From assembly GCA_026066175.1 (NCBI GenBank), contig GCA_026066175.1_4721.2: 64,000 nucleotides of DNA; one strand, written 5' to 3'. Positions 2,121-28,007 of the stretch are shown here, one piece after another. The translations under genes were made by a program, and so were the position numbers. The notes under the pieces are model-generated. The model searched no databases and was not told the DNA's origin. It saw nothing but the letters and a program-made list of their open reading frames with translations. Position 1 is the stretch's first letter. The number at the start of each line of letters is the position of its first letter. The DNA is from a phage.

Positions 2121-4718
2121 TTATAACGTGACTGTACCTAATTTGGTTGTCTTATTGAGATTAATGACAGATATCTGGGTATCGCTGGTCGTGATGGTGC
2201 CAATATTAACGCGCTGTCCTTTATCATCCTCTTGCTTGTGGATGGTTAACTCCAGCTCTAACTGGTTACCGTTAGGAACAACGGAAACGTACCATGTTTT
2301 ATTACCCGGGAAGCTATTATAGTCTTTTAGGTTATAATGGCCTTTAGGTAAGGTCATGACCTTACCGGCAAACAAGCAAGTGATGTCTTCGTTGACGTAA
2401 ACGTCGAAACCGGAAGAAGCGATGACTGTTGAGGTCATTATTCGAGACGTAACCATATCAGTAATGTAGTCATCGATTGTGGTACCTATGACATTGAATA
2501 CTTGCCCACCGTTACCCATAATGGCCGACTCGCTAGTGTTTACGTAGCCGATACCCCAAGTCGGATGAATGTTCCAGCGGTACCCACTGTTTTGTAAATA
2601 TGTATACATGTCCTCATAGGCCGCATTCACCCAACTACCATCACTTTTTCGTCCAGCCCTAAATTGGAATGTGTTGCCATTTCCAGATGTCCCTCGGCCA
2701 AGCGGGACATGTCCCGCTACTAACCAACCATCCGTACTTTGCATATATGCGAACGAACCGTACGCTCTGTTATCAGCCCAAATATTCACGGTATCAACAC
2801 GCTCAACGTAGGCGATTACCTTTTGTACGCCAGTTATAGCGATTGAACCCTTGCGTGCCGACACATTAACTTCTGCGATTACAACACCCATTTTACGCTG
2901 GCTGCCACTAAACCCCAATACAACCATTAAACACGGTGCGTTTGTTGCTTCAGGAGGGATTGTTATCGATTGTTTCCAGTCAGTGATTCCGTTGAGTTTT
3001 GTTCCAGTGTATGCGTTCCAGACGGTTTGTCCAGCCGATTTCAGATTCTGTTCAGAAATAGAAATGCTATCGCCCTCAGGGATTAACGTGTCGTAATTAA
3101 GACCGGTGTTACTGGATAGACGATTGTCATTTAAGTAAGATCCACTGAGTGTGACGTTATTGTTACGATATATTGTCAAGAATGGCGCAGCCAGAGCGTC
3201 TAATACCGTAAAGTTACTTGATGGCATGAAACCATAGACATCGATACCATTACCGCGATAATGGTAGTTTGTCCAACTACCTTGATAACTTACGGTACGC
3301 CCATCGTAGTGACCTTGTCCAGCGCTACTGCTAGACAACGTGTATATCTTGGTTGCTGATAGAAATGCGAGATACCCATGAGCCGCCAAAGCTCCAACAA
3401 CCCTGTCTTTTATCTTTAACCAAGCTGAAGTATATAACGTACTGTCGGGATTCATTTTGGCTATTTCATCGTAAGCTGTGCCTGCGAAGTTTCCGATAGT
3501 GTACGTACGTATATCCGGCTGTCCGTTATTGTCGTTCTGTACAGCAATTACTTGCCCAGAATCATTGATATCGATATTACCGATACAGTTGTGAGCCCCC
3601 CACACCCAATATCCATCTTTATAATTGGATTCTCCTTGTGTGAATGTTGATGGTCCTCGCCACGCGATGCCGTTCGATTCGGCGTAGTAGGTCGCTTGCC
3701 CCGATCCGGGATTCATGGCGTATTTGTTATTGGTTGGGTCAAAATCGATGTAAAAATGATGCATTCCTTGACGTTGATGATTGTTCTGATCATTTGTCCA
3801 CCACGATGAACCGACCAGAATTCGCGCTTTACCATTTTTTACAGTGGACCATAAACGTATTGCAGCGCGCCAGATGATTTGACCGATCCCGTTAGACGGG
3901 AAACTATTCGCACTTATACGGTTACAGACTATGAGTTCGCTGCTATTGTTTACTTGAGTCCCTTCAATTGTAACACCGTTTATGTTAGTGATCAGTGTTG
4001 CCGATACACTACCCCCTGTAGGGGCGATAGAGGAACGTTGAACGGTGTAAATTTTTAGTGATAATTTATAGCCGTCCCTAACAGCAATCCCAATGTAAAT
4101 AGTCCCGTTAATTTCCCAACAACAAACATCGGGCATCGTTTCTTTGAAATCGGATAAAGCACCATCGATATACATTGCAACGTGTTTACTGGCATCGAAT
4201 GTACCATCCGTTAACGCGATGAACATTTTGGCGTTATTACCGTTGATATCAGCCGCTAATCCGAGTAGTATGTTGTTCTGATGACAGTAGATGGCTTTAG
4301 GTGCTAGATCCAACATAGCCGGTTGGTACTGTCGGCTTGTCGGTATTACGCTAGTAACTGCACCATTTTGATCCGTTTTACAAATAACGTAATATACGCC
4401 ATGTATGATGCTGTTTGTCGCCGACCTTAGTAGGACAATCGTCCCGTCAGATTCACGACATATACCGTAATGACGATAGTCGGTGATTAAGCCGATAGCA
4501 CCATCAGCAGAGCCTTCAATTGCCAGAGGAAAATAACTTTGGTCCCCAACCTGTTCGATATCGGTTACGTCGATATCGATGTATTTTTCCATCTCAGTGT
4601 TGAACTCAGCGGTACTGTAGGCACCGAGATCGCTCGCCTTTAGTCCCGTTGGGTTGTCGCGACTGGCGATACGCGTAGTAACGCTACTCACCAGTTCGCT
4701 GAACTTTTTCATTGCCAT
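2121..4718 (-). CDS. large tail fibre/tailspike-like protein (putative receptor-binding protein)
   Basis: 865-aa ORF inside the fibre cassette. N-terminus (SELVSSVTTRIASRDNPTGLKASDLG) carries the same RDNPxxVTxAQ-type motif as the neighbouring fibre genes, followed by a large non-repetitive domain. SD gaggtg 5 nt upstream of ATG. Confidence 0.55.
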   Translation of the reverse strand: MAMKKFSELVSSVTTRIASRDNPTGLKASDLGAYSTAEFNTEMEKYIDIDVTDIEQVGDQSYFPLAIEGSADGAIGLITDYRHYGICRESDGTIVLLRSATNSIIHGVYYVICKTDQNGAVTSVIPTSRQYQPAMLDLAPKAIYCHQNNILLGLAADINGNNAKMFIALTDGTFDASKHVAMYIDGALSDFKETMPDVCCWEINGTIYIGIAVRDGYKLSLKIYTVQRSSIAPTGGSVSATLITNINGVTIEGTQVNNSSELIVCNRISANSFPSNGIGQIIWRAAIRLWSTVKNGKARILVGSSWWTNDQNNHQRQGMHHFYIDFDPTNNKYAMNPGSGQATYYAESNGIAWRGPSTFTQGESNYKDGYWVWGAHNCIGNIDINDSGQVIAVQNDNNGQPDIRTYTIGNFAGTAYDEIAKMNPDSTLYTSAWLKIKDRVVGALAAHGYLAFLSATKIYTLSSSSAGQGHYDGRTVSYQGSWTNYHYRGNGIDVYGFMPSSNFTVLDALAAPFLTIYRNNNVTLSGSYLNDNRLSSNTGLNYDTLIPEGDSISISEQNLKSAGQTVWNAYTGTKLNGITDWKQSITIPPEATNAPCLMVVLGFSGSQRKMGVVIAEVNVSARKGSIAITGVQKVIAYVERVDTVNIWADNRAYGSFAYMQSTDGWLVAGHVPLGRGTSGNGNTFQFRAGRKSDGSWVNAAYEDMYTYLQNSGYRWNIHPTWGIGYVNTSESAIMGNGGQVFNVIGTTIDDYITDMVTSRIMTSTVIASSGFDVYVNEDITCLFAGKVMTLPKGHYNLKDYNSFPGNKTWYVSVVPNGNQLELELTIHKQEDDKGQRVNIGTITTSDTQISVINLNKTTKLGTVTL

Positions 4719-7941: not shown

Positions 7942-7973
7942 GATGCGCCCTTTACAAGTTGTTAGTAAGTGTG

Positions 7974-7991
7974 GGATACCCTGGGGTATCC
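7974..7991. promoter_or_regulatory. 18-bp near-perfect palindrome GGATACCC-TG-GGGTATCC in a divergent intergenic region
   Basis: 8-bp arms that are exact reverse complements, separated by 2 nt, located between the divergent starts at 7941 (minus) and 8046 (plus). Candidate operator or bidirectional regulatory hairpin. Confidence 0.4.
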
Positions 7992-8045
7992 TGTGTTAAC
8001 AGCGGTAAAATATTACTGTAACTATAAAATAAGGGGGCCTCTCCC

Positions 8046-12999: not shown

Positions 13000-13058
13000 G
13001 GTGGCCTCCTCGCCAGAAATTAGTTAAAAAAGAGTTTGCGATATGCTGCGCTATCACG

Positions 13059-15470
13059 TTAAGCATCCTCGGTAGGTAATGGTTTCACAATCAAACGATT
13101 GAGCGGATTCGATAGGCGCATACTGATAGGCTTATACGCAGCATGATTCGTTTCGCTCAATACAGCGGATCGGAAGCGACCTTCAACACGTTTATAGATT
13201 GGGTTTATCCAAAGACCCTGAAGACCCGGTTGACGGAAACGTTGTTCGATAGGTTTAATCGGTTTCACGGTCAAACCACGTACCGCTTCTGACGGTATAC
13301 GTTCGCTGATGTCGCGAGGTGCTCGACCTGGGAATGGAGCCAACCAGAGACCATCCAGCGGGTTCTTACGGAAACGCAACGAGATAGGATCGCTGATAAC
13401 CTGCGCCCAGTACTGCGTGCTGAACCGTACCGTCTGGGTATTCTCGTATCCGCTGCAATCGCACCAGGTGGGTTTCGGCGGGGCTTCTAAGCTCTCAACC
13501 GCGGATTCACGCCAGTTCGTCATTGGGTTGTTATCATGGACGAATTTGATAACTTCCGTAGCTTGGTTATCCGTATCGTGAACGTTTGCTTGTGCCCAGT
13601 CCTCCCACAGTTCTTCACTGCCGCTTACCAAACTTGAACCGAGCCGAACGGCAATTTTGTTCAGTGGTTTGATCGGATCGCTGTTGATTGTCTGGATAAA
13701 ATGGATGGTGTAACTGCTCAGTGTTTTAAGCAGTTGTAGCATCCCGTATTGAATATCCTTAAGACTGGTAACGTCTTCCAAGTCTTGACCGGTGGCCTTC
13801 GTGAAGATATCGAGAGCCAGAATCCCCGCTTCTTCTTGACTGATTGCGTCAAGCTCCCAATCCATCGCTAAGAACCATTCCTTGTAAAGCTGTCCAATAC
13901 CGAAATCAACCCCAACGTCCATGTAGAAGTTTTCAACGATAGCCTCAGCCATACCTCGAGCCTGGTAATGCTCCTGAAGCTGATACATGAACTGATGACG
14001 ACGCCATCCCTGATAGATTTCTGTAACGATGTTAAGAAATTCCTCAGTACTGACAATAGGACGTAATGTCACCTGTTTATCTAAACACCACCAGATCAGT
14101 TTGTCAGGAATGATAACCGGATCGGTAATGCTACGAAGATGCTCGAATGTCGGTAACGTTAAAACGCGGACGTGGTTAGCATGGATCTTAGGTACTTCAA
14201 TGAGCGTCATACCCATCGAATAGTTCAGCAAATACAAGAATAGCTTGTAGGCATCTTTCATCGACATGGTCATGGTATCACCCGTCACCGGGTTGGTGGT
14301 GGTTAACCGTGACTGATACATGCCGATGGAACTCAGATGGATCCATTCGTTGAGCAAGAAATCGTATTTCGGGTATAACTCACTGTCGGTAAGATCTTCC
14401 GCTTCACTTTCCAATACCTTGGTTGTTAAGGTATTATTGTCATGCATCGACATCTTCTCTATTGTGCGGTTAAGCTCGGTATAATACTCCGCTTCGTTAT
14501 CCCGCGCTAGAGGGAACTGTTGTTGCATTACGGTGGTGACCTTACGACGTACCGTCCCGTTACCAACGATCTCTTGAAGGTTAAGCGGTTTACGTTCCAT
14601 GTAAACAGTGGGTTTTAACGTCTGAGGTATTTCGGAAGCGTCTTGTTTGATCGAGAACGCACCGATTGGAATACCACGATCGGTGAGTACCTTCTGAATA
14701 AGCTTATCGTAGTTTTCCGTTCTACCCATGTTCCTTTCGACGTAAGCGATGTTACGATAAAACCAGAGCATTTGGGATTCTGTCATGTATCGCTTGAAAC
14801 GATCAAGGCCTTGATGGCTTGCCAGATAGCTCCAGATATGGAAGCTATGGGCATAATGGGTATGACAGTTTTCCCAACGAATACCTTTTATCATCTCAGG
14901 TATTTGTGTGAATAGAATAGCATATAACGCAGGCCAATGAAGCATATCGACGCTTTCATACGCGGGATGTTCCCAGCGCCGGAAGTAGTCGTCGATTTCT
15001 TGCTGTAATCGTGGAATAAGGTTGGCTTCGCGTGATTCAACCTCGCGGGTATCGTACCAGAGAATCTCGTGATTGCGTGCAGCAAGGGCTTTCTCGATAT
15101 CGATGGGGTTAAGGATACCCAGGATTAACATACGTTGTTCTGGGTACCGTGCAATTAGACGATTGAAATAATCTCCGCCGTACGCGTATTCCCTTGCGGT
15201 CATGCGGTGCCGTAGCATGTTTTCCTTGGTGAACTCGATCTCTTCGAGCGTATCCAGGGAATTGACGGTCATCATTGTCTGACAAGGATGATACTCGCCA
15301 GCGAGATTCATGTAGTATAACCACGTGCGTGGGTCGTCCCCGACGGCCATCTGGTAGACTTCGGAAACCTTGAGGTTTAACCGTTCTGCCGTGATGTCGC
15401 TTTTAATAATCAGGGTGTCCGTTAGACGCTGCACGCTTTCCGAATAAAGCTGATAGTCAGTGTTGGACAC
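13059..15470 (-). CDS. large hypothetical protein with C-terminal RFR/GLW short repeats (start uncertain)
   Basis: Long ORF; the track start at 15539 is a TTG with no SD, whereas the in-frame GTG at 15470 is preceded by ggagga (6-nt spacer); the first in-frame ATG is at 15350. C-terminus has repeats SLRFRKNPLDGLWLAP / EQRFRQPGLQGLWINP / EGRFRSAVL. Confidence 0.55.
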   Translation of the reverse strand: MSNTDYQLYSESVQRLTDTLIIKSDITAERLNLKVSEVYQMAVGDDPRTWLYYMNLAGEYHPCQTMMTVNSLDTLEEIEFTKENMLRHRMTAREYAYGGDYFNRLIARYPEQRMLILGILNPIDIEKALAARNHEILWYDTREVESREANLIPRLQQEIDDYFRRWEHPAYESVDMLHWPALYAILFTQIPEMIKGIRWENCHTHYAHSFHIWSYLASHQGLDRFKRYMTESQMLWFYRNIAYVERNMGRTENYDKLIQKVLTDRGIPIGAFSIKQDASEIPQTLKPTVYMERKPLNLQEIVGNGTVRRKVTTVMQQQFPLARDNEAEYYTELNRTIEKMSMHDNNTLTTKVLESEAEDLTDSELYPKYDFLLNEWIHLSSIGMYQSRLTTTNPVTGDTMTMSMKDAYKLFLYLLNYSMGMTLIEVPKIHANHVRVLTLPTFEHLRSITDPVIIPDKLIWWCLDKQVTLRPIVSTEEFLNIVTEIYQGWRRHQFMYQLQEHYQARGMAEAIVENFYMDVGVDFGIGQLYKEWFLAMDWELDAISQEEAGILALDIFTKATGQDLEDVTSLKDIQYGMLQLLKTLSSYTIHFIQTINSDPIKPLNKIAVRLGSSLVSGSEELWEDWAQANVHDTDNQATEVIKFVHDNNPMTNWRESAVESLEAPPKPTWCDCSGYENTQTVRFSTQYWAQVISDPISLRFRKNPLDGLWLAPFPGRAPRDISERIPSEAVRGLTVKPIKPIEQRFRQPGLQGLWINPIYKRVEGRFRSAVLSETNHAAYKPISMRLSNPLNRLIVKPLPTEDA

Positions 15471-15497
15471 GATCGGTCCTCCAAGGAGCCAGTGTAA

Positions 15498-18416
15498 ATG
15501 AACGATATAAATAAAGGGCGCGTCGCCCTCGAACGTCAAATGAGCAATAATGACGTTGCGAAGGCACTCATGAACAAATTTGTCGCTCCTGCTCCGCAGT
15601 CACGTCTTTATAACACACGTGAAGCGGAAGGAGCGAGCGGTCGTTTCGGGTTAGTTGTTCCCGACCAGATGACGATGAACACGGTGACGCGTGCGACCGC
15701 AACAAACGTCGAGGATAATAAAAACATCCTCGAGTTGTTCCCTGAACTTAAACGCGTGATGCAGATCTATGTTGCCGCGTTGACGAACCCTAACGATCTT
15801 AAGACGGTCGAGATGTTCATCGACAGCGAAGATTTCCCCGGCAGAGTCGCAGAAATCGTTCAGCCGATGATCGATACCATCGACACGCATTTTAAGAATA
15901 TCTATAAAATAAAGACGCTTATCCCTCGTATCATCGAAGATGTCTTCTTTATCAAGGGCAGCTATAACTTCGTTGTTCTGCCTGAAAGCACGCTCGATCG
16001 TGCTATTAACGGCAACGGCCAACTGAAACTCGAAGAATACGGATTTAAAAACAATCATTTCGCCAGCTGGGGGCTGCTGGGGAATGACAGCCGTATACGC
16101 AGTCAACATCAGTTACCGACAACGGTTTCGATGGAAGATTATTTTTCAGGCGTTAACGAAACCATCCCGTACGATCCGGTTGTCCGTATCGATAGCATCA
16201 AGTTTACCAACACGATGCTCCGTGATAAAGACGGTAAATTCATTGAAGCGAAGGTCGATATTCCGGATATGGTTACGGTTGTTGATAACCCAGACATCCT
16301 TCGCATGCCGATTTTACACCAACGTCGTGCGTCAACAGCCGTGCAACGTGCATTACGTGCAAACACCTTAGGCGGTAACGGCCTGGTGACGTTATCAGGC
16401 GATCCGACGCAAACCGCGAATCGACGTGAGCTGACACAAGAGCAAGTTAATGAGATCTGGAATAAACTAAACATCCAACGTCATACCAAGGTATCGCCTG
16501 TGTACGCACTAGCAACCCCGGATACCCTTGACCGTCAAAGCGTTGGTCATCCTGGCGTAATGCATGTACCACCTGAGTCATTAGAACCGGTTCATGCGCC
16601 TGGCGATCCAGAGAACCATATCGGTTATCTCGTCCAGCTGGATGAATTCGGTTACCCAGTACGTTTGGTTGAAGATGCTGCGTATTACAAACAGCTGGAA
16701 GGTCGACTGTCGAAGATCACGGCGGATATTGCCGGTACATCAAGCAACGGAATGGCGAGTGAGATGATCGGGGCAGCGAAGAACATGGTTCAAGGTACGT
16801 CGTGTAACCAAGTCGATATGTCAGCGTTTGTCTCGTCGTACGAATCACTGATGCAACGTTATATCGTTGAACGTATCGTTAACGGTTACCTCGGCAGTGC
16901 GGTAGAAATCGGTGCAACGTCGTCGTTCTATCTGTCGATGCTTGCCCGCAGTCTTGCTCACAAGCAAACCCGTGTTTTGTTTATTCCTCGTGAGATGGTG
17001 ACATACATCGCCTACGAATACAACAAATACGGGATTGGACGTTCCTTGCTTGAAAGTACGAAGATGATCTCATCGCAACGCGCGATGCTCATGGTTCAGG
17101 AACTGATGGCGAAAATCAAAAGTTCGTTGAACTATACGACGCTGAGCGTGATGCTCGAAGACACCGATAGAAACCCGGTTGATACCGTTGAGCAGGCATT
17201 GCACAGTTTTGCTCGTGTTTATCAATCTGGTTTCCCGTTGGGTGAAACCAACCCAATGGATATCATCAATGCATACGAACGAAGCTCGATTCGATTGAAG
17301 GTTGAAGGGAACAACCCACGCTTCCCGAAACTGAACACCGACGTTAGCGTTGAACAACGTAACTACCAATCCCCGGATGATGAGCTGATGGATCGTTACC
17401 GTCGTGATCATTTCATGGGTCTGGGTGTTTCTCCAGAGATCGTTGATACGTCCTACCAATCTGAATTCGCGGCGTCGGTGATTACGGCTAACGCGATGCA
17501 AGAGAAACAGTTCACGGTTTGTCGTGAGGTCGTCACGAATGGCTTAACTGATCACATCAAGAAGTATACGGCTTATAGTCCTGTGCTTCTGACGTCGTTA
17601 CGCAATACCGTTCGCGCGAATATGTCAAAGCTCTCTCAAGCGCAGCTGCAACAGCTCTTTGGTAGCGACTTCGAAAACGGTGTTATTCGTAACGTGAACG
17701 CGTATCAGGAGATTGATGATCGATCGGTGACAATGGATCTGGATTACACCAAACCGGAAGTCCAGGAAGTGATTGCTGACGCTTATGTCTCCATGTTCTT
17801 AAACAGCTTGCAGGTACGTTTACCGGATAGCAACGCGCGTCGCCTTGAAGATCAGGTACGTGAATATAATCAGTACAAGGAAGCGATTACAGCACAACTT
17901 GATGATTATTTAACACCGGATTATGTCATGGGTCTGGGTGGGGTCGATGAAACAACCCTGCAGATGATTCGAGCGTGCATCATTGGTACGGCGATGAGGA
18001 CATGGGCGAAAGAAAACAACTTCAATCAGGAGCTGGCCGATCTCTTTAGTCTCGACGATAAGAAGAATGCCGTCCAGGATTGGAAACGTGCATCCATGGA
18101 GCATATTGAAATCATGGGTAAATGCATGGGTGATTTCGCACTCTATATCCAAAACCTGACGAAGCAAATCGAAGAGAAGATGGGCGACCAAGCACAAGAC
18201 GGTAGCGTTTCATCTGACGGCTCATGGTCATCGGATTCCGGTTCGGATAGCGGTTCTTCCGATGATTTCGGTGGTGGTGATGACTTTGGTGGCGACGACG
18301 ATTTCGGAATGGAAGAAACCGAAGAATCCACCGAGGAAACCACTACGGAAGAAACAACCGATGAAACTGGTGATAATGCCGCATCAGAAGACGATACCGC
18401 AGGTGATATTGTCTAA
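15498..18416 (+). CDS. large hypothetical virion protein with acidic DDFGG-repeat C-terminal tail (portal-like size; function unverified)
   Basis: 972-aa ORF; SD aaggag 9 nt before ATG; C-terminus SSDDFGGGDDFGGDDDFGMEETEESTEETTTEETTDE... is low-complexity and acidic. Confidence 0.6.
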   Translation: MNDINKGRVALERQMSNNDVAKALMNKFVAPAPQSRLYNTREAEGASGRFGLVVPDQMTMNTVTRATATNVEDNKNILELFPELKRVMQIYVAALTNPNDLKTVEMFIDSEDFPGRVAEIVQPMIDTIDTHFKNIYKIKTLIPRIIEDVFFIKGSYNFVVLPESTLDRAINGNGQLKLEEYGFKNNHFASWGLLGNDSRIRSQHQLPTTVSMEDYFSGVNETIPYDPVVRIDSIKFTNTMLRDKDGKFIEAKVDIPDMVTVVDNPDILRMPILHQRRASTAVQRALRANTLGGNGLVTLSGDPTQTANRRELTQEQVNEIWNKLNIQRHTKVSPVYALATPDTLDRQSVGHPGVMHVPPESLEPVHAPGDPENHIGYLVQLDEFGYPVRLVEDAAYYKQLEGRLSKITADIAGTSSNGMASEMIGAAKNMVQGTSCNQVDMSAFVSSYESLMQRYIVERIVNGYLGSAVEIGATSSFYLSMLARSLAHKQTRVLFIPREMVTYIAYEYNKYGIGRSLLESTKMISSQRAMLMVQELMAKIKSSLNYTTLSVMLEDTDRNPVDTVEQALHSFARVYQSGFPLGETNPMDIINAYERSSIRLKVEGNNPRFPKLNTDVSVEQRNYQSPDDELMDRYRRDHFMGLGVSPEIVDTSYQSEFAASVITANAMQEKQFTVCREVVTNGLTDHIKKYTAYSPVLLTSLRNTVRANMSKLSQAQLQQLFGSDFENGVIRNVNAYQEIDDRSVTMDLDYTKPEVQEVIADAYVSMFLNSLQVRLPDSNARRLEDQVREYNQYKEAITAQLDDYLTPDYVMGLGGVDETTLQMIRACIIGTAMRTWAKENNFNQELADLFSLDDKKNAVQDWKRASMEHIEIMGKCMGDFALYIQNLTKQIEEKMGDQAQDGSVSSDGSWSSDSGSDSGSSDDFGGGDDFGGDDDFGMEETEESTEETTTEETTDETGDNAASEDDTAGDIV

Positions 18417-18451
18417 CCGTTCGTTAAAAAAAAAAAATAACACATAGTTAA

Positions 18452-18485
18452 CCTTCTCCCCAACCCGGAAGGGAAGGGGAGAAGG
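18452..18485. terminator. conserved GNRA-capped hairpin element, copy 2
   Basis: ccttctcccc-aa-ccc-ggaa-ggg-aa-ggggagaagg between convergent stops (18416 and 18503); preceded on the plus strand by an A12 run (18426-18437), which is a U-tract for the minus-strand transcript. Confidence 0.65.
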
Positions 18486-18502
18486 GCTATGCGCTATTTA
18501 AC

Positions 18503-18778
18503 TTATCTCGAGTTTAACCACGATTCAATTGTGGTGAGGTTGCTTCGCAATACGCGCCAACTAGGGTGTGGTGGGATCACAGCACCTTTGTCGATTACGG
18601 TTAGCTGAGCCTGGTACTTCTGTTTCATACGGGCTACCGTAGCGCTTACCGAAAGGAAAAGCTGGTAACGTTCGTACACCGTCAGTTCATCTTCCCGTCG
18701 AACTGCTCCTGTTGCTAACGTAATTTCGCGTAAGTCCTTTGCGTCCATCGGGACAGTAATGAGTTTATAATGACTCAT
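18503..18778 (-). CDS. small hypothetical protein
   Basis: 91-aa ORF between the hairpin element and the 18799-18820 hairpin. Confidence 0.5.
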   Translation of the reverse strand: MSHYKLITVPMDAKDLREITLATGAVRREDELTVYERYQLFLSVSATVARMKQKYQAQLTVIDKGAVIPPHPSWRVLRSNLTTIESWLNSR

Positions 18779-18798
18779 AGGGGTTTCCTTATCAACCA

Positions 18799-18820
18799 GG
18801 GTATTGCGTTAACAATACCC
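18799..18820. terminator. hairpin gggtattg-cgttaa-caataccc between genes (terminator or operator candidate)
   Basis: 8-bp perfect inverted repeat centred on a gttaac palindrome, 9 nt downstream of the stop of 18829..21420. Confidence 0.35.
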
Positions 18821-18828
18821 ATCGTCAA

Positions 18829-21420
18829 TTACTGTTCGTCGCGTTCCAACAGGTACTCGGAAGCCGTAACACCGTTTACAGTACGGATGGCTTTCAGACG
18901 TGTATCATCGTTCAGAATCACGGTAACAGACTGCAGACCTTTTACCTTGGTTTCGAAGGTTTTGAATACCTGGTCTAACATACGTGCGATGCTTGGGTTG
19001 GTGGCAGCTGATGCGTGGGTATACCCACTCTGATTAAGTTTCAGAATCTTCGCGTTGGTTGGTACACGAACGATAACATGCGGACGCATAGCGAACACGC
19101 TGTGGTTGAACCAGTACGCATCCGGGCTGTCTTCATCGGTCACGAGGTCTGGATGGGTCTGCATATCTTCAGCTGCAGCATCCGCCAAACGACGTTCGAT
19201 TTCGTCAGCATCCAGAGAACCATCTTTCTCCAGCTCAGCACGATACTCATCCATGATTGCCGCGCGACGCTCTTGATTTGCGACCATCTTATCATGAGCC
19301 GCATTCAGGTAATCGTTCATGCTGTAAAGCTCTGCCATGGAAAGACGGATGTTCCACTGACCAACACCGTCACGATTGCAGTAGAGGCATTTCAACATAT
19401 TGCCCCAGGTGTGATAGCAACGGGTGAACTCGTCTTCGATGAACTTCTGATCCATTTTAAGTTCGTTGATCAGCCAGCTATACAGCTCACCGACATCATC
19501 TACGAAGCTTGCAATGGTGGTTTCAGAGAAGTTCTTAGGTACAACACGCTTGATCCATTTGTTGATGTCTTTGGTCATGCTGTCGTTCAGGAAATGCCAG
19601 ATACGCAGAGGGATAACCTCTCTGTGTTGTTGCATGACCTGACGATAGGCTGACACACCTTCAATATGACCTTTATCAATAGACAGGGCATCCAGGAATT
19701 CCTGGATAGCATCAAGCTGTTTATCGGTGTAGGTTCCCAGGTAGGAATTGACTGTGGTCAGGAACGCCAAAGCATCGTTCTGGTTGACGTCGGTATTGGT
19801 CTGCTGGATGATCGCAACCGTCGCTTTGGTTTCAGCGTCTTCGATGCTGGATGCCGGAACCATGTCAGTGACAGTGAACAGTTTCATCTCACGCTGTTCG
19901 CCAACAACAATCGGTTCACGTCTAACCGGTTTGTTCAGGCTAACACGCACAACTTCTGCTTGCGCGATACGATCCCATTCTGCCATTTCCAGCTCCGCCA
20001 TACGACGTGCGGTTGGATCTGTTTCAAGTTGAATGTATTCCATTTCTTCCACCGTAAGTGAGGTAATATCAACAATGGTTTCATGAAGAATTCCGTTTTC
20101 GTCAATGCGAGCGCGACGAGCGAATTGCCTGAAGTCATACGCGGTTGGCCAACGGCTATCAGGCGCGTAGTCTTTGGCCTTCAGACGCATTTGCATGAAT
20201 TCTTCATGGTGAACAACACGACCGTATTGCTTCGCATCTTCGGTCGCATCAAGAGGGTCAACCGTTTTGGTTACCGTCGCAGGACGTACGCTACGTACCG
20301 GCTCAGGTTTTACCTTCACGGTTTCAGGTTGAGTAGGTGCTTTCTGCTCAGCCTTAACATGCCATTTCGGTTCTTCGTACTGCTCAGCGAATTGCTCAGC
20401 TACCGCAAAGATATCGTTGATGCCGCCAATATCTCCATCCGGATGGGTTGAGTAAATACGCGTTTGTGGTGCTTCCTGACGCGTTGCTGCTGGAGCAGGT
20501 TTATCGTCAACTGGGTCATCATCACCAACATCGTACAAACGGTTGAACGCACACTCCTTCGAATCCATATACGAAGGTGCTTGCTGCTGAACAACCGTTG
20601 GTCGAGGTTGTGTGCCGTATCCTGGCATTGTCGGAGCCATACCACGCATAACCGCTGGATTAGGTTGGTACTGCGGCTGAGGATAAGCTCCACCGTACGT
20701 GTTATACACAGGTTGTTGAGGTTGACCGTATCCGGCGTTGACCATCGCGTTTGCTTGCGGTCCGCGATAGGTCATTCCCAACTGCGTTACCTGCGCTTTT
20801 AACGCACGTGTCTTCTGCGCGATTTGATTCAGAGTCCCACCTTGATTCAGTTGTGTATACTTATTCGCTGCTTCCGGGTTAATGCGCGTTAATTCCTTTG
20901 CACGATAATACTCAGGATATTGATTGGCCTCAAAGAGCCACTGTACAAGATGCATAAGTATCGTTGTACGTACCGCGGTGTCGATAATCTGATCGACTGA
21001 TGCATTCTGAGGCGCTGGGTTGATATAAGAGAATACGTTCCAGCAGCAGTCCTCAACAAGTGACTCCATCGCCTCGTTGTTATTGGCGTAACGTGCCACG
21101 AACTGTGTTTGAATATCGTCTTGCTGAGCATGCTCTTTCAGGACATTAAAGATAGCCTGACGGATTTTGACGATATTTCCTTCGTTGGTGATGAACTGGT
21201 AGTTCTGCTGATATGCTGGATTAGGTTGGTATTGCGGTGGTTGTTGGTAACCGCCCCCGTATTGTGGATAAGCCGGTTGCTGGGGTTGGTACGGAGGTTG
21301 TTGATATTGCGGTTGCTGGTACTGTTGTTGACGCACCTGGTCAGCTGCAAATCGAACCGTGCTTGCGTACGGGTTCTCGCTATAGCCCATTTGTTGGTAT
21401 ATGTTGTTACCGTTATACAT
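18829..21420 (-). CDS. hypothetical protein with two Q/Y/P-rich low-complexity (prion-like) segments
   Basis: 863-aa ORF; residues ~28-75 (QQYQQPQYQQPPYQPQQPAYPQYGGGYQQPPQYQPNPAYQQNYQ) and ~225-270 (GYGQPQQPVYNTYGGAYPQPQYQPNP...); SD aaaagga upstream. Confidence 0.7.
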   Translation of the reverse strand: MYNGNNIYQQMGYSENPYASTVRFAADQVRQQQYQQPQYQQPPYQPQQPAYPQYGGGYQQPPQYQPNPAYQQNYQFITNEGNIVKIRQAIFNVLKEHAQQDDIQTQFVARYANNNEAMESLVEDCCWNVFSYINPAPQNASVDQIIDTAVRTTILMHLVQWLFEANQYPEYYRAKELTRINPEAANKYTQLNQGGTLNQIAQKTRALKAQVTQLGMTYRGPQANAMVNAGYGQPQQPVYNTYGGAYPQPQYQPNPAVMRGMAPTMPGYGTQPRPTVVQQQAPSYMDSKECAFNRLYDVGDDDPVDDKPAPAATRQEAPQTRIYSTHPDGDIGGINDIFAVAEQFAEQYEEPKWHVKAEQKAPTQPETVKVKPEPVRSVRPATVTKTVDPLDATEDAKQYGRVVHHEEFMQMRLKAKDYAPDSRWPTAYDFRQFARRARIDENGILHETIVDITSLTVEEMEYIQLETDPTARRMAELEMAEWDRIAQAEVVRVSLNKPVRREPIVVGEQREMKLFTVTDMVPASSIEDAETKATVAIIQQTNTDVNQNDALAFLTTVNSYLGTYTDKQLDAIQEFLDALSIDKGHIEGVSAYRQVMQQHREVIPLRIWHFLNDSMTKDINKWIKRVVPKNFSETTIASFVDDVGELYSWLINELKMDQKFIEDEFTRCYHTWGNMLKCLYCNRDGVGQWNIRLSMAELYSMNDYLNAAHDKMVANQERRAAIMDEYRAELEKDGSLDADEIERRLADAAAEDMQTHPDLVTDEDSPDAYWFNHSVFAMRPHVIVRVPTNAKILKLNQSGYTHASAATNPSIARMLDQVFKTFETKVKGLQSVTVILNDDTRLKAIRTVNGVTASEYLLERDEQ

Positions 21421-21454
21421 CTTCTTACAATCCTTTTATTTATTCGATTAGGTG

Positions 21455-23251
21455 TCAATCGATTATGTCACGATCGTTAATTTCTACAATTTCTTCATCG
21501 AATCGACCGACGTCTTTCTTCAAGCCTGCGTTTGTTGCTGCAACGTCATTTGCGATTTGTGGGGTAACGATTAACCGACCACGATCGTCAATCGGTGCGT
21601 ACATACTGAACTTCTGGCGTCCGGTTGGTTCGGAGTGCGGAAGATTCAGATAGCTCGCGCAGAACGGGATGGAACCGCTCACCAAACGACTCTCGTCAGC
21701 CAATGCGGCCCCGCCCGCATTTTGACTCTGGAGAACAACATGTGTACTTACTTTGAACAGCATGCAGTCACCAGGTGATTGAATCGAGGTTGCCACTTTC
21801 TCGCGTTTATCACGATTGCTCTGGATGTTGAGAATCGCTTCTGTTGCAACTTGATTGCGTAACGCTTTTTGTACATCGCGATTGGTCATCTCTTTCCGGT
21901 TGTTCTGTCGTTTACCACGTTCAGTGGTTTTAAGATGGAACCCCAGTTTAAAGATGCTCTTACGCACATCCTCCATGACGTATTCCAACACCATCAGTTC
22001 CTTACCGAACATCGTCGTGGTGTCGACACGACTCATTTCGATAGTGACGTTATCAATCAAATACGCCATGAATTCGTAGAAGTCGTCGCACGGAATATTT
22101 TCCTGTTTGAACTTCTTCTGTTGAATTTCGTCAACGTAAAGATCGAGGCTGTCGATGTGGTGGTTTACATCACGCAACAAACGCGCATCCGCATTGTTGT
22201 TATTAAAGATAATCAAACCGAGTAGCGTACGCCAGTGGTCTGTCGCATTCGCGAACTCTTCAACCGGATAGTCTTCTGGAAAACGATCGTAATAACGGTC
22301 GATGAGATAGAGGAACGCACCGACAAGACCGAGCACAATACGTTCCGTGCCGCCACGTCTTACCGCGATTTGAATATCAGGATGTTTATAACGTACCGCG
22401 CTAACGCTACGACTCTTACCGCTTTTGCTAATACTAAAGCCTTTAGGAATAACGCCCATGGTGCGATAGATTACCCATTGGTCGCGCGGAAAATCACGTT
22501 CAGCGAGATTCCGTCCGGTTATTGCTTCGACGCCTGCAAAACGCCGGAAACATTCACCCACGCCATATTTCGCAAAGAGATAATGGCCCAACGTGGTTAC
22601 GCTGGTGTGGTTGATGTTGTCCCCGTTCACCTTGCTTTGTTTGGTAAGGTGATAGATTTGCGACCAGGGCAATGACAAGTAATGTCGATAATCATTACCG
22701 GTTGGTGTATCATTGCTCAGGAACTGATACGGCGTACGCTTAACGGTGATTTTGTCACGCGGAAGCATGATGAACGCCATGTCTTTCGTGTAACTGATTA
22801 CCGGGTCAGCAAGCACCGCACTGAGAATGAAGTTCGCACCACGTAGACGCATCTTGCCACCCTGACCTACCGCAGGCAATAGGAGAGGATGCCGGATGAT
22901 GCAGTAATCCTTGCCGGGTTCACGACGGTCACCTGCTTCCATCGCGCCATACCAGCGGAATTCTAACATCACCATGAACACATCGGAAGGCGCAAGGTCG
23001 AACGTCAGCTTACCGCTATCCTTCCCTTTGGTTTTCTTTCCTCCGCTTAAGTAGTGAAACTGTTCGCGGGCCATACAACGACGTAGGCCATGATACACCA
23101 GATCCTTAGGTAAACTATCTTTGCTGTTCCGCCAAAGACGATCGACGTAGGACTCAACATCTTGCATCTTATCGACGACGATGTTGCGTGCTATCTTCTC
23201 GTTCATCTTCGGTGCAAGCTCAGCGACAGCTTTGCAGAATCTAGGATCCAT
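21455..23251 (-). CDS. hypothetical protein
   Basis: ~598-aa ORF; the ATG at 23251 has SD aaggag with a 6-nt spacer (the track start at 23254 is a GTG only 3 nt from the SD). Confidence 0.65.
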   Translation of the reverse strand: MDPRFCKAVAELAPKMNEKIARNIVVDKMQDVESYVDRLWRNSKDSLPKDLVYHGLRRCMAREQFHYLSGGKKTKGKDSGKLTFDLAPSDVFMVMLEFRWYGAMEAGDRREPGKDYCIIRHPLLLPAVGQGGKMRLRGANFILSAVLADPVISYTKDMAFIMLPRDKITVKRTPYQFLSNDTPTGNDYRHYLSLPWSQIYHLTKQSKVNGDNINHTSVTTLGHYLFAKYGVGECFRRFAGVEAITGRNLAERDFPRDQWVIYRTMGVIPKGFSISKSGKSRSVSAVRYKHPDIQIAVRRGGTERIVLGLVGAFLYLIDRYYDRFPEDYPVEEFANATDHWRTLLGLIIFNNNNADARLLRDVNHHIDSLDLYVDEIQQKKFKQENIPCDDFYEFMAYLIDNVTIEMSRVDTTTMFGKELMVLEYVMEDVRKSIFKLGFHLKTTERGKRQNNRKEMTNRDVQKALRNQVATEAILNIQSNRDKREKVATSIQSPGDCMLFKVSTHVVLQSQNAGGAALADESRLVSGSIPFCASYLNLPHSEPTGRQKFSMYAPIDDRGRLIVTPQIANDVAATNAGLKKDVGRFDEEIVEINDRDIID

Positions 23252-23290
23252 CACACACTCCTTACAGAAAGTTGCTTAAGCAGATTAAAG

Positions 23291-24673
23291 TTATTTCTTC
23301 GATGACACCTTCTCAAGAATCTTGAAAAAGGTCATACCTATACCGACAACGGCTGCGGTGATGCTTGCTGCAGCTTTCCAAACATCGACGTTACGTTGAC
23401 GTCGTGCTTCTTCCGCTTCACGTTGTCTTTTTGCCTCTTCATCACGTCGGCGTATTTCAGCAGCGAATTCCTCATGCTTACGTTTCGCGTCTTCGTCTCG
23501 GCGACGCATTTCAGCGATAAGTTCATCGTGCTTACGTTTCGCGTCTTCATCGCGACGTTTGAGTTCAGCCAGATGGTCATCTTGCATTTGTCGCCGAAGT
23601 TCGTCCTGACGTTTCATTTCGGCTCTATGCTGCTCATCACGCAGTTTTGCTTCAGCGCGATGGGTCTCTTGCATCCGTTCGATGATGTCTTTATGTTCAT
23701 CCGCCATACGTCGCATTTCAGCCATCACCCCTTTAAGGGTTTCTTCTGATGACTTACGTTCGTAGCTACGCTGGTCGAAATCATTTTTGTAGGCTTCCTT
23801 CTGGATGGGATCGCGCCAATGCAATGCCGATTCGCGGGTTGGAAAAACATTGTATTTCCACATTTCTTTTTCCAAATCTTCTACCGGTACGAAGACGGAA
23901 TCATTATTCCCGAAGGTAACCAACATCCCTGGAGCACCTGCCCCGTTCGTTGGTTTTATTTCGAACGCTTTCCCCAAGACGTTAACCCATAAGCTGTACG
24001 GATTATGGAAGTCTGGTGGCGTCCAATGGATGGTGAGCTGTGTTCCGAGAATCCGGAACCCCTCTGGTTTTCCTGTTAAACTTCGCGCACATGTTGCGAT
24101 ATAGGGGTGATCAATCCCTTTCGTAACATGGTCAGCGCTTTTGTATTCTCCTTTAACTTTTACGATTGCCACGTTAATTTGCGCGACATACACAGGTTGA
24201 TTAAAATTTAAGGCTGTTAGGTCTATTCGACATATCTCGTCCAAGGTGTCGTACCAATCTTCCTGGTCGAGCAACCTGGGTTTTCTCTCGACGCACGTAA
24301 TGCGTCGGATATGGGGTTTTCTTACCGCATAACCGCTTCGGTTTTTAACGCCCAGTATATCCCGTCGTCTACCGTCGTAGACGAAGTTCTTGAACGCGCC
24401 ATTCGCATTAGATATGTCATGGCTGTCAACTATTACAGGACTACGAAATTTTGAACGTCGTACGATCCTGAATGTGTTACCCTCTTCGACCCTACCTGGA
24501 ATGTATTGGAACATATTGTCGGATGTAATGACCAATACCGTATGCCCAGACTCATTAATACAACCCCACCCTAACTCTAAGTCATATAACGGTTCCTGGT
24601 ATCCGTCGATGCTATACGTGCCTGTGCCATCCCACGGCTCAAACGGCGTATCGCAAACCGGCATAGAGGACAT
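23291..24673 (-). CDS. C-terminally membrane-anchored protein with ER/K-rich charged helical stalk
   Basis: 460-aa ORF with a strong SD (gagggagga). C-terminal third is highly charged and repetitive (RRDEDAKRKHDELIAEMRRRDEDAKRKHEEFAAEIRRRDEEAKRQ), followed by a hydrophobic segment AAASITAAVVGIGMTFF and a basic tail. Confidence 0.65.
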   Translation of the reverse strand: MSSMPVCDTPFEPWDGTGTYSIDGYQEPLYDLELGWGCINESGHTVLVITSDNMFQYIPGRVEEGNTFRIVRRSKFRSPVIVDSHDISNANGAFKNFVYDGRRRDILGVKNRSGYAVRKPHIRRITCVERKPRLLDQEDWYDTLDEICRIDLTALNFNQPVYVAQINVAIVKVKGEYKSADHVTKGIDHPYIATCARSLTGKPEGFRILGTQLTIHWTPPDFHNPYSLWVNVLGKAFEIKPTNGAGAPGMLVTFGNNDSVFVPVEDLEKEMWKYNVFPTRESALHWRDPIQKEAYKNDFDQRSYERKSSEETLKGVMAEMRRMADEHKDIIERMQETHRAEAKLRDEQHRAEMKRQDELRRQMQDDHLAELKRRDEDAKRKHDELIAEMRRRDEDAKRKHEEFAAEIRRRDEEAKRQREAEEARRQRNVDVWKAAASITAAVVGIGMTFFKILEKVSSKK

Positions 24674-24885
24674 TGATTATCCTCCCTCAAACAGACAACA
24701 TACATGCATAATGCACGTCCCTTTTCTTGTTATCATCACAACGACAGTCGACGGTTTCAGCATCATTCTTAGCGCGAGAACGACCTTACGTGTTGTCTAT
24801 GCCTTTTTTCATTGAAGGCTTCTGTCACCTAGGTAATGTAAGCGTCAAATTTTTTCTAATCTAACCCAGCATAACAGCATAATAA

Positions 24886-24915: not shown

Positions 24916-25014
24916 TTGACTTATGTATCACGGTGCCGGATGAATGTCCGGTGTAATGAAACCATCCGCAACGTTGTTTTCAAGAACTTCATCCAACGAA
25001 GCAGCTCCGGTATT

Positions 25015-27237
25015 TCAGTTAGTCTGAACCGGCAGCTTGATGTTTTCAGTGTAGACCTTACGCAGGTTCACAACGTTGATCAGACCCAGCAGCGGGCAGT
25101 TGTTCACGAAACGGCAGCGCGGCTGAACCATGGTTTCTTTAGAAACCTGACCGTTACGAGTAACCTGAGCAACGGATACCAGTTCCGGTACGTACAGGAA
25201 CATACCGAAGGTCAGCGGATCCGGAGAACCCTGGATACCACGAGACAGGGTCACGAAGATCTTGTCGCGCAACATGACGTTCGGGTTGTCTACAACCACG
25301 AAGTTGAAGCTTACACCCACGGTGCGGAAGTCACCATCGGTCTGCAGGAACTGCGGGATGTAGTTGTCGGTTGCTACTACGCAACGCGGTTTCTCATCAG
25401 CGTTGGAAGACAGCAGCTGCAGAGCTGGCTGATAACCAGACTCGGAGTACATGCGGTACGCCATTTCACGAATCACGTTCATGATCGCAGCGGATACTTC
25501 AGCACGACGTTCTGCAGTGGTGGTACCCTGAACGGATTTCTCCAGGTCCAGATCGATTTCTTCGAACCACGGACGAATCAGGTAACGACCGAAACCTTCG
25601 ATCTGAATGTCACCGAACTGACGGAAGCGAGAAGTTGCAACCGCTTTCAGGGCGTCTTTGTAGCTGAACAGTTTCTCAACCATCAGGTTGTCGAAACGTG
25701 CGTTAGCTGCTTGGATCAGAACATCCAGGTCAGCAGCGTTTTCTTCCCAATCCAGCGGACGAGGAATGGAGAACGGAGCCAGCAGGCCGATTGCGTAACG
25801 TTCTTGCTTCATGTTGAAGTCAAGATGTTTACCGCGTTCACGACGGTTGCTGTTGTTACGACGGATACGCAGTTCGTAACCCACCAGTTTGAAGCTCAGG
25901 TCTTCAGCCAGATCTTTGAATTCCTGGCTCTTACGCGGTTGTTCGATGTTGTCCTGGTCAACCAGACGATACAGTTCAGCGGTAGCGCCATTAACACGCA
26001 GACCCGCTTTCTCTACGTTGGAAGAACCGTAAACTTCGATCGCCAGCTGAGCAGCAGATTTCGCATCGATGATGTCCTGCAGCGCTTCAGCTTTCGCACC
26101 TTTAACGTCAACGGTGTTCTCATCAACGAAGATGGAGTGGGTGTCGAACGCCAGGGTCATTTTGCGGAAGTCGCCTTCCAGGGATTTCTGGAAACCGTTG
26201 GTGATCAGACCGGATACGTCGAACGGAACGTAAGAGGTTTTGCTGTGCTTGGTGGATTTAATTTCCACCAGGATTTTGGTCAGCGTGATCTGAGCATCCA
26301 GCGCGTCAGTGTTGTCGCTGTAACCGTTAGCCAGAATGCTATCGTCTTCAGCGATACCGATCATGTCGATCAGTTTATCAACCGCCAGGTAAGACGTTTT
26401 GTAAGTAACGCCTTTGATTTCGATGTCGCGCGGAGCAACGATGGTTTTATCAACGAAGTACTGCGCGTTAGCATCGTCAGCACGGTAGATCGGATGCAGA
26501 TCGGTCACGTCGTTGGACAGAACGTCGTTGTACATGAACGCATCCAGCAGCGGACGACGTACCCAATCAGCCGGAGTACCATCACCGTTACGACGCAGGT
26601 GGTTGAACACCAGCGGACGACGGAAGGAAACGTCATAACCGATCTGGTTCGGAGCCAGAACGATGGTGTTGTACAGTTCGTTACCCATGCGGCTCAGACG
26701 AGACGCCTTCACGTTGAACACAACGGAGTACGGCATCATGTCACGCAGTTCTTTCTGGTCGTAGGACAGCTGAACCAGTTCTTCAGATTCACAACCGCAG
26801 GAATCCGCAGCCATCATGACGAAGTTAGCGCTGTCAACATCACGGCCGGACGGCGAGGTGCTGATGTTCATGGAACGTGCTTGTTTAGCATATTCCACCG
26901 GGTTGCCATGTGCCAGCATGATCAGCGCTGCAGCGCGAGCCTGCTGTGCGTTCATGGTGAACAGCTGTTCTTCAATACGTTGCTTCTCTTCCGGAGTTGT
27001 GGTTTCGAAGCCCAGCATGGACAGAACCGGTTCTTCAGCTTTACGGATGTCGCTGCTGAAGCTCTTAACATCCATTTCGTTAACCAGTTTGTCCATGGAT
27101 TTGAAATCAACCTTAGAAGCAGATTCCATAGACAGGAAGGTGTTTTCCAGACCTTTGTCTGCTGGTTTGCTACCATTAGCGGTCAGGAACTGGCGAGTGG
27201 CCGCGACCTGTTGGCTAAGAAGGGTTTTATCATTCAT
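25015..27237 (-). CDS. putative major capsid protein (highly expressed virion protein)
   Basis: 740-aa ORF with markedly optimised codon usage (CTG, CGT, GGT, AAC, TTC, GAA) compared with its neighbours; size matches jumbo-phage major capsid proteins; SD taaagga. The opposite strand carries a long stop-free antisense ORF, typical of highly biased genes. Identity not verified by similarity search. Confidence 0.5.
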   Translation of the reverse strand: MNDKTLLSQQVAATRQFLTANGSKPADKGLENTFLSMESASKVDFKSMDKLVNEMDVKSFSSDIRKAEEPVLSMLGFETTTPEEKQRIEEQLFTMNAQQARAAALIMLAHGNPVEYAKQARSMNISTSPSGRDVDSANFVMMAADSCGCESEELVQLSYDQKELRDMMPYSVVFNVKASRLSRMGNELYNTIVLAPNQIGYDVSFRRPLVFNHLRRNGDGTPADWVRRPLLDAFMYNDVLSNDVTDLHPIYRADDANAQYFVDKTIVAPRDIEIKGVTYKTSYLAVDKLIDMIGIAEDDSILANGYSDNTDALDAQITLTKILVEIKSTKHSKTSYVPFDVSGLITNGFQKSLEGDFRKMTLAFDTHSIFVDENTVDVKGAKAEALQDIIDAKSAAQLAIEVYGSSNVEKAGLRVNGATAELYRLVDQDNIEQPRKSQEFKDLAEDLSFKLVGYELRIRRNNSNRRERGKHLDFNMKQERYAIGLLAPFSIPRPLDWEENAADLDVLIQAANARFDNLMVEKLFSYKDALKAVATSRFRQFGDIQIEGFGRYLIRPWFEEIDLDLEKSVQGTTTAERRAEVSAAIMNVIREMAYRMYSESGYQPALQLLSSNADEKPRCVVATDNYIPQFLQTDGDFRTVGVSFNFVVVDNPNVMLRDKIFVTLSRGIQGSPDPLTFGMFLYVPELVSVAQVTRNGQVSKETMVQPRCRFVNNCPLLGLINVVNLRKVYTENIKLPVQTN

Positions 27238-27386
27238 TGAAAGTATCCTTTACAGATTTAACTTATATAAGTCGGTCGATAGACCATAGCGTACACGCGT
27301 GCATGCGCCACTATAGTATCAGTAAACACTTACCGTTATTGAGGTTGTGATACAACACTAAAAATGCCGCATAACTTTTCCCTACG

Positions 27387-28007
27387 TCACAAACGACGCA
27401 GGCGATAATGGATGGAACGATTGGTGCAATATGAACGGAACAGCGGTAATTGCGCAACTTCCGCAAGACTCATATTAATTCGCAGATGTTCGATAACCGC
27501 GCTGTAGTTATCGGCGATACGATCGCTCAGTAACTCTTCTGCCAATAAAGGAAGACAATCGACAACGATGGCGATCACATCCTCATTAACATAACGCACC
27601 CGAACATTGAGTGGACGTTTGTCTGGGCCGTAAGTTGGATCCGCCAAACGACGTTCAATATCGCGTGGATAGCTCGTCAGTAAATGGTAATAACCATTGT
27701 CATAACGATTGATGTACTCACACAGCACATCAACATTCTTCTCTGGCGGCAAACCTGTTTCGTCATAGTGATACGCAAACATACCACCAAGCAGGTTGTT
27801 AAGATGAACCGCAGGGTTCGCTTGTTCGTGTTCTTTCGTGATGAAGAAAGGCACGTTCTGGGCTGCGAAATAAAAACCTACATCATTGGGCGATAGTATG
27901 CCGAAAAGACTTTTAGGGTCTAATAACACCTGTAAGTCATCACGCGCATTTCGAATAATCGCGTGTTCTACCCAATTCGGAACGACGAGATATCGGAGTT
28001 CCTTCAT
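27387..28007 (-). CDS. hypothetical protein
   Basis: 206-aa ORF; SD agagg 8 nt upstream. Confidence 0.6.
   Translation of the reverse strand: MKELRYLVVPNWVEHAIIRNARDDLQVLLDPKSLFGILSPNDVGFYFAAQNVPFFITKEHEQANPAVHLNNLLGGMFAYHYDETGLPPEKNVDVLCEYINRYDNGYYHLLTSYPRDIERRLADPTYGPDKRPLNVRVRYVNEDVIAIVVDCLPLLAEELLSDRIADNYSAVIEHLRINMSLAEVAQLPLFRSYCTNRSIHYRLRRL

Follow-up and report, generated by a model that had tools for sequence, protein, structure and literature searches.

Where can the promoters of two divergently transcribed genes lie when hardly anything but their ribosome-binding sites separates the start codons? The question is raised by a locus in a 64,000-nt stretch of phage DNA (contig GCA_026066175.1_4721.2 of GenBank assembly GCA_026066175.1; hereafter the window, to which all positions refer unless another genome is named), where a baseplate-wedge gene on the minus strand and a portal gene on the plus strand stand head to head. 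In our reading, to which we give a probability of about 0.58, the first ~30-60 codons of each gene also hold the promoter and 5' untranslated region (UTR) of the other, which makes the junction a compact bidirectional control region, used by the phage non-virion RNA polymerase (nvRNAP). The observation that carries this reading is the near absence of synonymous change in the opening 30-60 codons of the wedge and portal genes in three pairs of related phages, which is what embedded signals predict.

Abutting ribosome-binding sites between the wedge and portal genes

Positions 13000-18500 match Escherichia phage vB_EcoM_Goslar at 88.4% nucleotide identity over the full length of the segment, and the whole window is collinear with 18.5-79.6 kb of that genome (~58.6 kb aligned at 87.7% identity). 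From these alignments we assign the window to a Goslar-like chimallivirus with a genome distinct from that of Goslar (~87-88% identity overall). Goslar belongs to the chimalliviruses, jumbo phages that form a nucleus, and its genome is transcribed by two phage-encoded multisubunit RNA polymerases (PMC7598289, PMC13282480). Its chimallin shell gene lies at 171003-172898 of the Goslar genome, beyond the part matching the window.

The identities of the two genes follow from their phiKZ counterparts. The minus-strand protein aligns with phiKZ gp128 (BLASTP, 35% identity, E 3e-119, residues 1-618) and with the profile phrog_3222 (E 6e-208, residues 1-649 on profile positions 1-650); in the structure of the phiKZ virion, gp128 forms part of the baseplate wedge (PMC13250141). 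The plus-strand protein aligns with phiKZ gp129 (BLASTP, 25% identity, E 1e-75), which is the portal (PMC13250141), and with phrog_3004 of the head and packaging category (E 1.6e-162), and its homologues are named portal in some GenBank records. Both gp128 and gp129 are reported to be free of transposon insertions in phiKZ (PMC12676376).

Read along the plus strand, the junction consists of CAC (15468-15470, the GTG of the minus strand), gatcgg, TCCTCC, AAGGAG, ccagtgtaa and the ATG at 15498. A preliminary description of this DNA had reported adjacent Shine-Dalgarno (SD) sequences, a GTG at 15470, an ATG at 15498 and almost no intergenic DNA; the sequence is as described, with a gap of 27 nt. 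The TCCTCC and AAGGAG hexamers adjoin at 15477-15488, and the exact 12-mer TCCTCCAAGGAG is unique within the window. The (G)AGGAG of the portal SD is retained in phages RAY, Eowyn, phiKZ and SA002 and in L006, a 259-kb contig with 67% portal identity. Since the two SD sequences abut, any 5' UTR that contains its own SD must begin within or beyond the ribosome-binding site of the other gene. The nearest upstream non-coding DNA is kilobases away on either strand.

The compactness would be an annotation artefact if the wedge gene began at TTG 15539 or at a GTG 36 nt downstream, in which case the gap would not be 27 nt. The open frame does run to TTG 15539, the sole upstream alternative start, and GTG starts are the rarer kind (10/247 in Goslar); the preliminary description had itself flagged the wedge start as uncertain. 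However, TTG 15539 is without counterpart in L006, Eowyn and LucasX; there the frame upstream of the GTG contains stops or offers no start codon, so that the GTG is the earliest start available. A strong SD lies 6 nt from the GTG, the GTG-TCx (Val-Ser) beginning is found in four of seven lineages, and the alignments with phiKZ gp128 and with the PHROG profile both begin at residue 1. The Goslar RefSeq record has identical start codons and an identical 27-nt gap. The portal start cannot be earlier because an in-frame TAA stands 3 nt upstream of its ATG. By comparison with relatives both start codons are therefore well supported, GTG 15470 is upheld, and we consider an annotation artefact highly improbable.

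Among the divergent gaps annotated in Goslar (n=20; 27, 31, 34, 39, 54 and 64 nt, then 96-254 nt) the one between wedge and portal is the shortest. The two genes form a head-to-head pair in every one of the 13 sampled chimallivirus lineages, the gap varying from 27 to 66 nt: 27 nt in the window and Goslar and also in L006, 28 nt in Ralstonia phage FLC1-1B and in Proteus phage 10, 31 nt in Salmonella phage SA002 and in Pseudomonas phage DT01, 32 nt in Erwinia phage RAY and relatives, 35 nt in phiKZ and in PA1C, 38 nt in Klebsiella phage Eowyn, 43 nt in pEa_SNUABM_54, 46 nt in Xanthomonas phage LucasX and 66 nt in Burkholderia phage FLC9. In the seven lineages inspected the gap is essentially the two ribosome-binding sites, and the distance from SD to SD ranges from 0 (the window) to 23 nt. 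Anatomy, start codons, gene identities and the family-wide pairing and spacing can all be read directly from these genomes. As a side observation, the annotated wedge/portal junctions of Xanthomonas phages RTH11 and Xoo-sp14 are unlike those of their relatives (a 150-nt gap; an extra small open reading frame, ORF). RTH11 carries a LucasX-type wedge start flank at its position 2468, with which its gap would be ~48 nt, and the deposited start calls of both phages are probably wrong.

Frozen synonymous sites at both 5' coding ends

As a synonymous measure we used the fraction of identical residues that are encoded by the same codon, and compared codons 2-30 with the remainder of each gene. For the window and Goslar this fraction is 27/27 in the portal gene (remainder, 0.66) and 29/29 in the wedge gene (0.72). 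The corresponding values are 29/29 (0.58) and 19/23 (0.54) between RAY and AH06, and 22/27 (0.57) and 26/28 (0.57) between Eowyn and KpGz_1, with p between 7e-3 and 2e-7 in all six comparisons. The constraint is thus observed directly, on both genes and in each of the three lineage pairs.

Uninterrupted identity is centred on the same place. Over the first ~40 kb of the window, no run identical with Goslar is longer than the one that spans the junction (358 nt, 15265-15622). When other, independent lineage pairs were compared with a pairwise aligner, the longest identical run again lay across the junction for RAY and AH06 (136 nt; 77% overall identity) and for Eowyn and KpGz_1 (120 nt; 82% overall); for LucasX and RTH11 (62% overall) the wedge start lies in the longest run (40 nt) and the portal start in a run of 35 nt that ties for second place. 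Among eight Goslar-like genomes the 328 nt at 15265-15592 hold just two variable sites, the background variable fraction being 15-19%. In 200-nt windows at the four divergent junctions of the window, identity reaches percentiles of 0.96, 0.99, 0.98 and 0.88, whereas mean percentiles are 0.54-0.68 at co-directional junctions and 0.44 at convergent ones.

It is possible to explain this conservation with no embedded promoters at all, by selection on translation initiation (mRNA structure, codon choice), by service as a linker for homologous recombination between head and tail modules, or by both. This explanation gains from the fact that the 5' ends of other genes are also more conserved than their bodies, and from the high-identity patches that are common in the window, one of which, at 18417-22234, is truly mosaic: there the IMG/VR genome L004 is 90.9% identical to the window as against 83.7% for other Goslar-like genomes, which is not so in the flanks. 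However, the effect is stronger in divergently paired genes than at gene 5' ends in general. Eight such paired genes have a third-position identity of 0.935 in codons 2-30, vs 0.836 in 27 others (p 4e-5), and in codons 31-60 the values are 0.871 vs 0.776 (p 7e-4). The constraint moreover reaches at least 60 codons, past the usual initiation zone, and the signal is repeated in Agricanvirus and Eowyn-like phages. As for recombination, distance matrices of the wedge body, the conserved trough and the portal body share one topology, with ~6-fold smaller distances in the trough and no breakpoint at the junction. Since the topology is unchanged and the distances are proportionally smaller, the trough points to a lowered substitution rate under selection, and a recent recombination patch is unlikely to be its cause. 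Taken together, we hold an origin in translation or linkage alone to be rather improbable. An overlapping antisense gene was also considered for the trough and rejected: the 152-aa ORF at 15651-16109 (minus strand) is broken by stops in L006.

Table 1. Positions of the features discussed in the text.
Feature	Position	Strand	Details
Baseplate-wedge gene, 803 aa, GTG start	13059-15470	minus	orthologue of phiKZ gp128 and Goslar gp035
Portal gene, 972 aa, ATG start	15498-18416	plus	orthologue of phiKZ gp129 and Goslar gp036
SD GGAGGA of the wedge gene	15477-15482	minus	6 nt from GTG; TCCTCC retained in L006
SD AAGGAG of the portal gene	15483-15488	plus	9 nt from ATG
Spacer of two abutting ribosome-binding sites, 27 nt	15471-15497	none	same in 8 Goslar-like genomes; 27 nt in L006
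Invariant block, 349 nt identical in 4 genomes	15265-15613	none	genome alignment
Zone of ~6-fold lower divergence (trough)	15201-16000	none	distance matrices, variable sites per 100 nt
Hairpin GAGGGCG-ACG-CGCCCTT with T-rich tail	15504-15530	minus	inside portal codons 6-11, 44 nt upstream of wedge GTG
10-bp hairpin CCTTCTCCCC...GGGGAGAAGG	18452-18485	none	convergent junction downstream of portal gene; sequence read
phiKZ gp123 orthologue, nvRNAP beta-like subunit	21455-23254	minus	BLASTP 24% identity, E 1e-57
Second compact divergent junction, 39 nt	28008-28046		206-aa gene (minus) / DnaB-like helicase (plus)
Third compact divergent junction, 35 nt	51359-51393		genes correspond to Goslar gp061/gp062
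Fourth divergent junction, 104 nt	7942-8045		highly conserved stretch, identity percentile 0.96

Candidate promoters and transcription of the two operons

How could two promoters fit into such a junction? The phiKZ nvRNAP offers a precedent. Its subunit gp123 binds TATG, the 4-nt start-site motif of late promoters (PMC12809450), and the enzyme requires only T-3ATG+1 and downstream DNA, with no upstream -35/-10 elements (PMC4666361, PMC12809450). A promoter of this type would permit tight divergent packing because start-site and downstream sequence suffice. The window encodes a gp123 orthologue; the remaining nvRNAP subunit genes are outside the window-equivalent part in Goslar. In one pairwise BLAST alignment, and with the pocket residues listed in PMC12809450, the orthologue has 7 of the 14 residues of the TATG pocket identical (S144, F151, K158, K190, H331, S334, Q466), 2 exchanged for another aromatic residue and 5 different. 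In Goslar, TATG occurs 31-40 nt upstream of start codons 16 times where ~3.3 are expected, a ~5-fold enrichment.

We therefore picture the junction as two promoters with their 5' UTRs written into each other's first ~30-60 codons. With 5' UTRs of 31-40 nt, each start site would fall 4-13 nt inside the coding sequence of the neighbour, and the two transcripts would overlap antisense at their 5' ends, each UTR having the complement of the other SD. The polymerase would be the phage multisubunit nvRNAP, using start-site-proximal and downstream sequence with no -35/-10. A footprint of -50 to +50 for each gene would take up ~150 nt in total, near the 120-136 nt of the invariant runs in two lineages. 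It is from the synonymous constraint that we infer promoter and UTR function, and the start positions, the polymerase and the promoter class are proposed on the same footing.

A number of results weigh against embedded promoters. Going upstream from the portal ATG, the TATG of phiKZ-type late promoters is first met 634 nt away, and from the wedge GTG 1012 nt away; among 11 lineages checked it occurs near the junction only in Proteus phage 10. The Goslar early motif of the virion RNA polymerase, TATATTAC, is not found near the junction either, where the best position weight matrix (PWM) score is -1.7 bits. A sigma-70 search (-35/-10 with 16-18 nt spacing) gave no match in 14466-17550, and the region total was 14 vs 18.9 in shuffles. 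Inspection for a shared motif, anchored on start codons, across the 11 lineages and four short Goslar junctions yielded nothing convincing. Additionally, gene 5' ends are generally more conserved (third positions 0.836 vs 0.718), so that the signal is in part shared with genes outside divergent pairs; the trough of the Goslar group, at 800 nt, is wider than two promoters require; and at ~60% identity, in the pairs window vs L006 and phiKZ vs PA1C, the junction does not stand out by its conservation. Because the excess is gone at that distance, the embedded signal would be lineage-specific in sequence, and because the canonical TATG is absent, a promoter class other than TATG would be needed. 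Such a class has room in related phages, as 32/149 start sites in phiKZ and 24/67 in 201phi2-1 are without a known motif (PMC10914365, PMC11512511).

Two suggestions of the preliminary description are thus borne out in part. It had placed the promoters inside neighbouring coding sequence or made them very short, with which the geometry and the frozen synonymous sites agree, although neither TATG nor an early-motif or sigma-70 match lies near the junction. It had also found the arrangement consistent with a polymerase that uses minimal promoters; the gp123 orthologue and the TATG enrichment in Goslar fit, but TATG itself is not near the junction, and a known minimal promoter cannot, from the sequence, be said demonstrably to drive the wedge and portal genes.

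The remaining motif searches gave little at the junction. The early motif, in its extended form TTCACGGCTATATTACyTAnGTGA, has eight intergenic copies in Goslar, one of them upstream of the shell gene; its PWM sites in the window, 33330 and 24833 (both minus strand; 35 and 30 bits), lie upstream of the genes at 32895-33299 and 23291-24673. Of the phiKZ middle motif AAanTTACc, which is centred ~24 nt upstream of the start site, the junction has only partial TTAC matches that would put the start site at or after the SD, and TTAC shows no positional peak in Goslar. A recurring (G/T)ATA(G/A)TC ~45-54 nt upstream of portal ATGs was rejected because it results from a conserved Asp-Tyr of the wedge N-terminus read antisense, and a likeness between two junctions, 'CCTTTATTT', was dropped because at 51359-51393 an A-rich ribosome-binding site, read on the complementary strand, accounts for it. 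A look-up of Logan contigs for RNA-derived contig ends returned just genomic-type contigs.

The promoters might instead be remote, with distant start sites (for instance at TATGs at least 634 nt from the portal and at least 1012 nt from the wedge start) or read-through from upstream, long antisense leaders, and a junction that holds translation signals only. Three points favour this explanation: 10 of the 11 lineages in which TATG was sought show no recognisable motif close to the junction; two TATGs, at -634 and -649 relative to the portal ATG, occupy identical positions in the window and L006; and 201phi2-1 is reported to have virion genes for which a nearby promoter was not found (PMC11512511). 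However, these two TATGs are by-products of the conserved His-Ser/His-Thr codons of the HSFHI motif in the wedge protein and are absent in RAY, FLC1-1B and others, so that we reject them as a conserved antisense promoter. Plus-strand transcripts from remote sites would have to cross up to 6 kb of minus-strand genes antisense, and remote promoters leave the junction-centred frozen synonymous sites of three lineages unexplained.

Read-through on the minus strand probably meets a further obstacle just upstream of the portal antisense region. An A12 run (T12 on the minus strand; 18427-18440) adjoins the 10-bp hairpin at 18452-18485, with TATG after the hairpin on both strands; the terminator pattern scan missed this hairpin. 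Judging from its sequence, the combination of hairpin and T12 likely stops minus-strand read-through from the upstream operon into the antisense strand of the portal gene. If it does limit read-through, the wedge operon needs a promoter somewhere in 15471 to ~18440. Remote promoters for the two genes are, in our estimate, unlikely.

A second hairpin, at 15504-15530 on the minus strand, may be a terminator or a 5' element but is an unproven candidate for either. It is the first listed of 16 terminator-like matches in 8-22 kb, where shuffles lead one to expect 13.5, its fold z-score is -1.6, and its form differs in L006. It resembles modules frequent in the genome that consist of a hairpin and TTTATGCYGT. 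Recurrent intergenic modules of this kind, in which a G+C-rich terminator hairpin is directly followed by TTTATGC(C/T)GT, are found at 24867-24882, 33374-33381, 38680-38687 and 47326-47333, all on the minus strand, and can be likened to the phiKZ terminator consensus ...GGGRRGGBYTTATKYYGT (PMC10914365). The TATG in these modules could be both the terminator tail and the late-promoter start site of the next gene.

Stable RNA structure was a further candidate and was set aside, the fold z-scores at the junction being -0.4 to -1.6, with only the plus strand of L006 reaching -2.2; Rfam gave no matches across the window. Each 5' UTR of the proposed pair would bear CCUCC beside its own GGAG, with predicted hairpins of -5 to -8 kcal/mol; such mini-hairpins between SD and anti-SD proved no better than those of shuffled sequences. 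It has to be called speculative, and quite doubtful, that the junction is an ancient bidirectional module with an undescribed, TATG-less class of nvRNAP promoter, in which the 5'-5' antisense overlap and the SD/anti-SD complementarity would couple or balance portal and wedge synthesis.

Other divergent junctions and known systems

The preliminary description had pointed to similar compact junctions at 28008-28045 and 51359-51393. Both are real; the first ends at 28046, its ATG being at 28047, so that one end coordinate was off by one. At the first, a TATG (28010-28013) abuts the start codon of the minus-strand 206-aa gene, and a 200-nt run identical with Goslar (27958-28157) spans the junction; the helicase junction of phiKZ measures 211 nt. 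At the second, the Goslar RefSeq record describes gp061 and gp062 as similar to phiKZ ORF089 and ORF088, and phiKZ gp088/gp089 are likewise divergent, with a gap of 39 nt. At both of the compact junctions that are conserved in phiKZ, a baseplate-wedge operon stands opposite a head-gene operon (13059-15470; 52603-55596): the gp128-like gene is paired with the portal gene and the gp087/gp088-like genes with the gp089-like gene, and the wedge heterotrimer of the phiKZ structure is built from gp087 and gp128. The middle of the 104-nt gap at 7942-8045 holds a perfect 7-bp inverted repeat, GGATACC-ctgg-GGTATCC (7973-7990), flanked by AATATTTTAC and AAATATTAC on the two strands; these motifs recur near the tail-sheath divergent junction of Goslar.

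Elsewhere in the window, a stop-free 774-aa ORF at 24916-27240 (plus strand) covers the major capsid gene (25015-27237, minus strand) in antisense from end to end and was preferred to it by a greedy ORF picker; it is probably a shadow ORF. Three segments have no blastn alignment with Goslar (2433-3548, 31159-33318 and 56030-58109); they are replaced or highly diverged, lie within or between genes, and include part of a 1201-aa gene (55658-59263).

Many virion genes of nucleus-forming jumbo phages have no assigned promoter: between roughly one fifth and one third of the start sites mapped carry no known motif. The wedge/portal junction narrows the promoter search to 150-350 nt in which two essential genes must start and which frozen synonymous sites mark in several lineages. 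The stretch is therefore well suited as a template for mapping start sites and for in vitro nvRNAP assays. In practical terms, anyone who targets either 5' end by recoding, transposon insertion, antisense oligomers or dCas13 guides is likely to hit the control region of the neighbouring gene too.

The closest known counterpart is the gp035/gp036 pair of Goslar (NC_048170.1, 33877/33905), with the same genes, start codons and 27-nt spacer and with 100% identity over window positions 15265-15622. The junction is therefore already known as an annotated locus, although the Goslar annotation gives gp035 no function and the junction no regulatory feature; what is new here is the replicated conservation of synonymous sites. 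In phiKZ, gp128/gp129 are an orthologous head-to-head pair whose 35-nt gap is likewise filled by ribosome-binding sites, but the wedge gene starts with ATG and not GTG, the SDs are ~10 nt apart and not 0, and the junction has no detectable nucleotide similarity. The late promoters of the phiKZ nvRNAP (T-3ATG+1; model promoter P119L) share with the window the conserved gp123, and TATG is positionally enriched in Goslar; they differ in that the window junction has no TATG and that 5 of 14 pocket residues are changed. Classical sigma-70 divergent promoters require ~80-150 nt of intergenic DNA, whereas the window junction has 27 nt and no sigma-70-like hexamers. With those divergent promoters of bacteria and phages that overlap or face each other the junction would share one short control region for two units and a possible 5' antisense overlap or interference; among these systems it would take its place as a conserved, fairly ordinary compact bidirectional control region.

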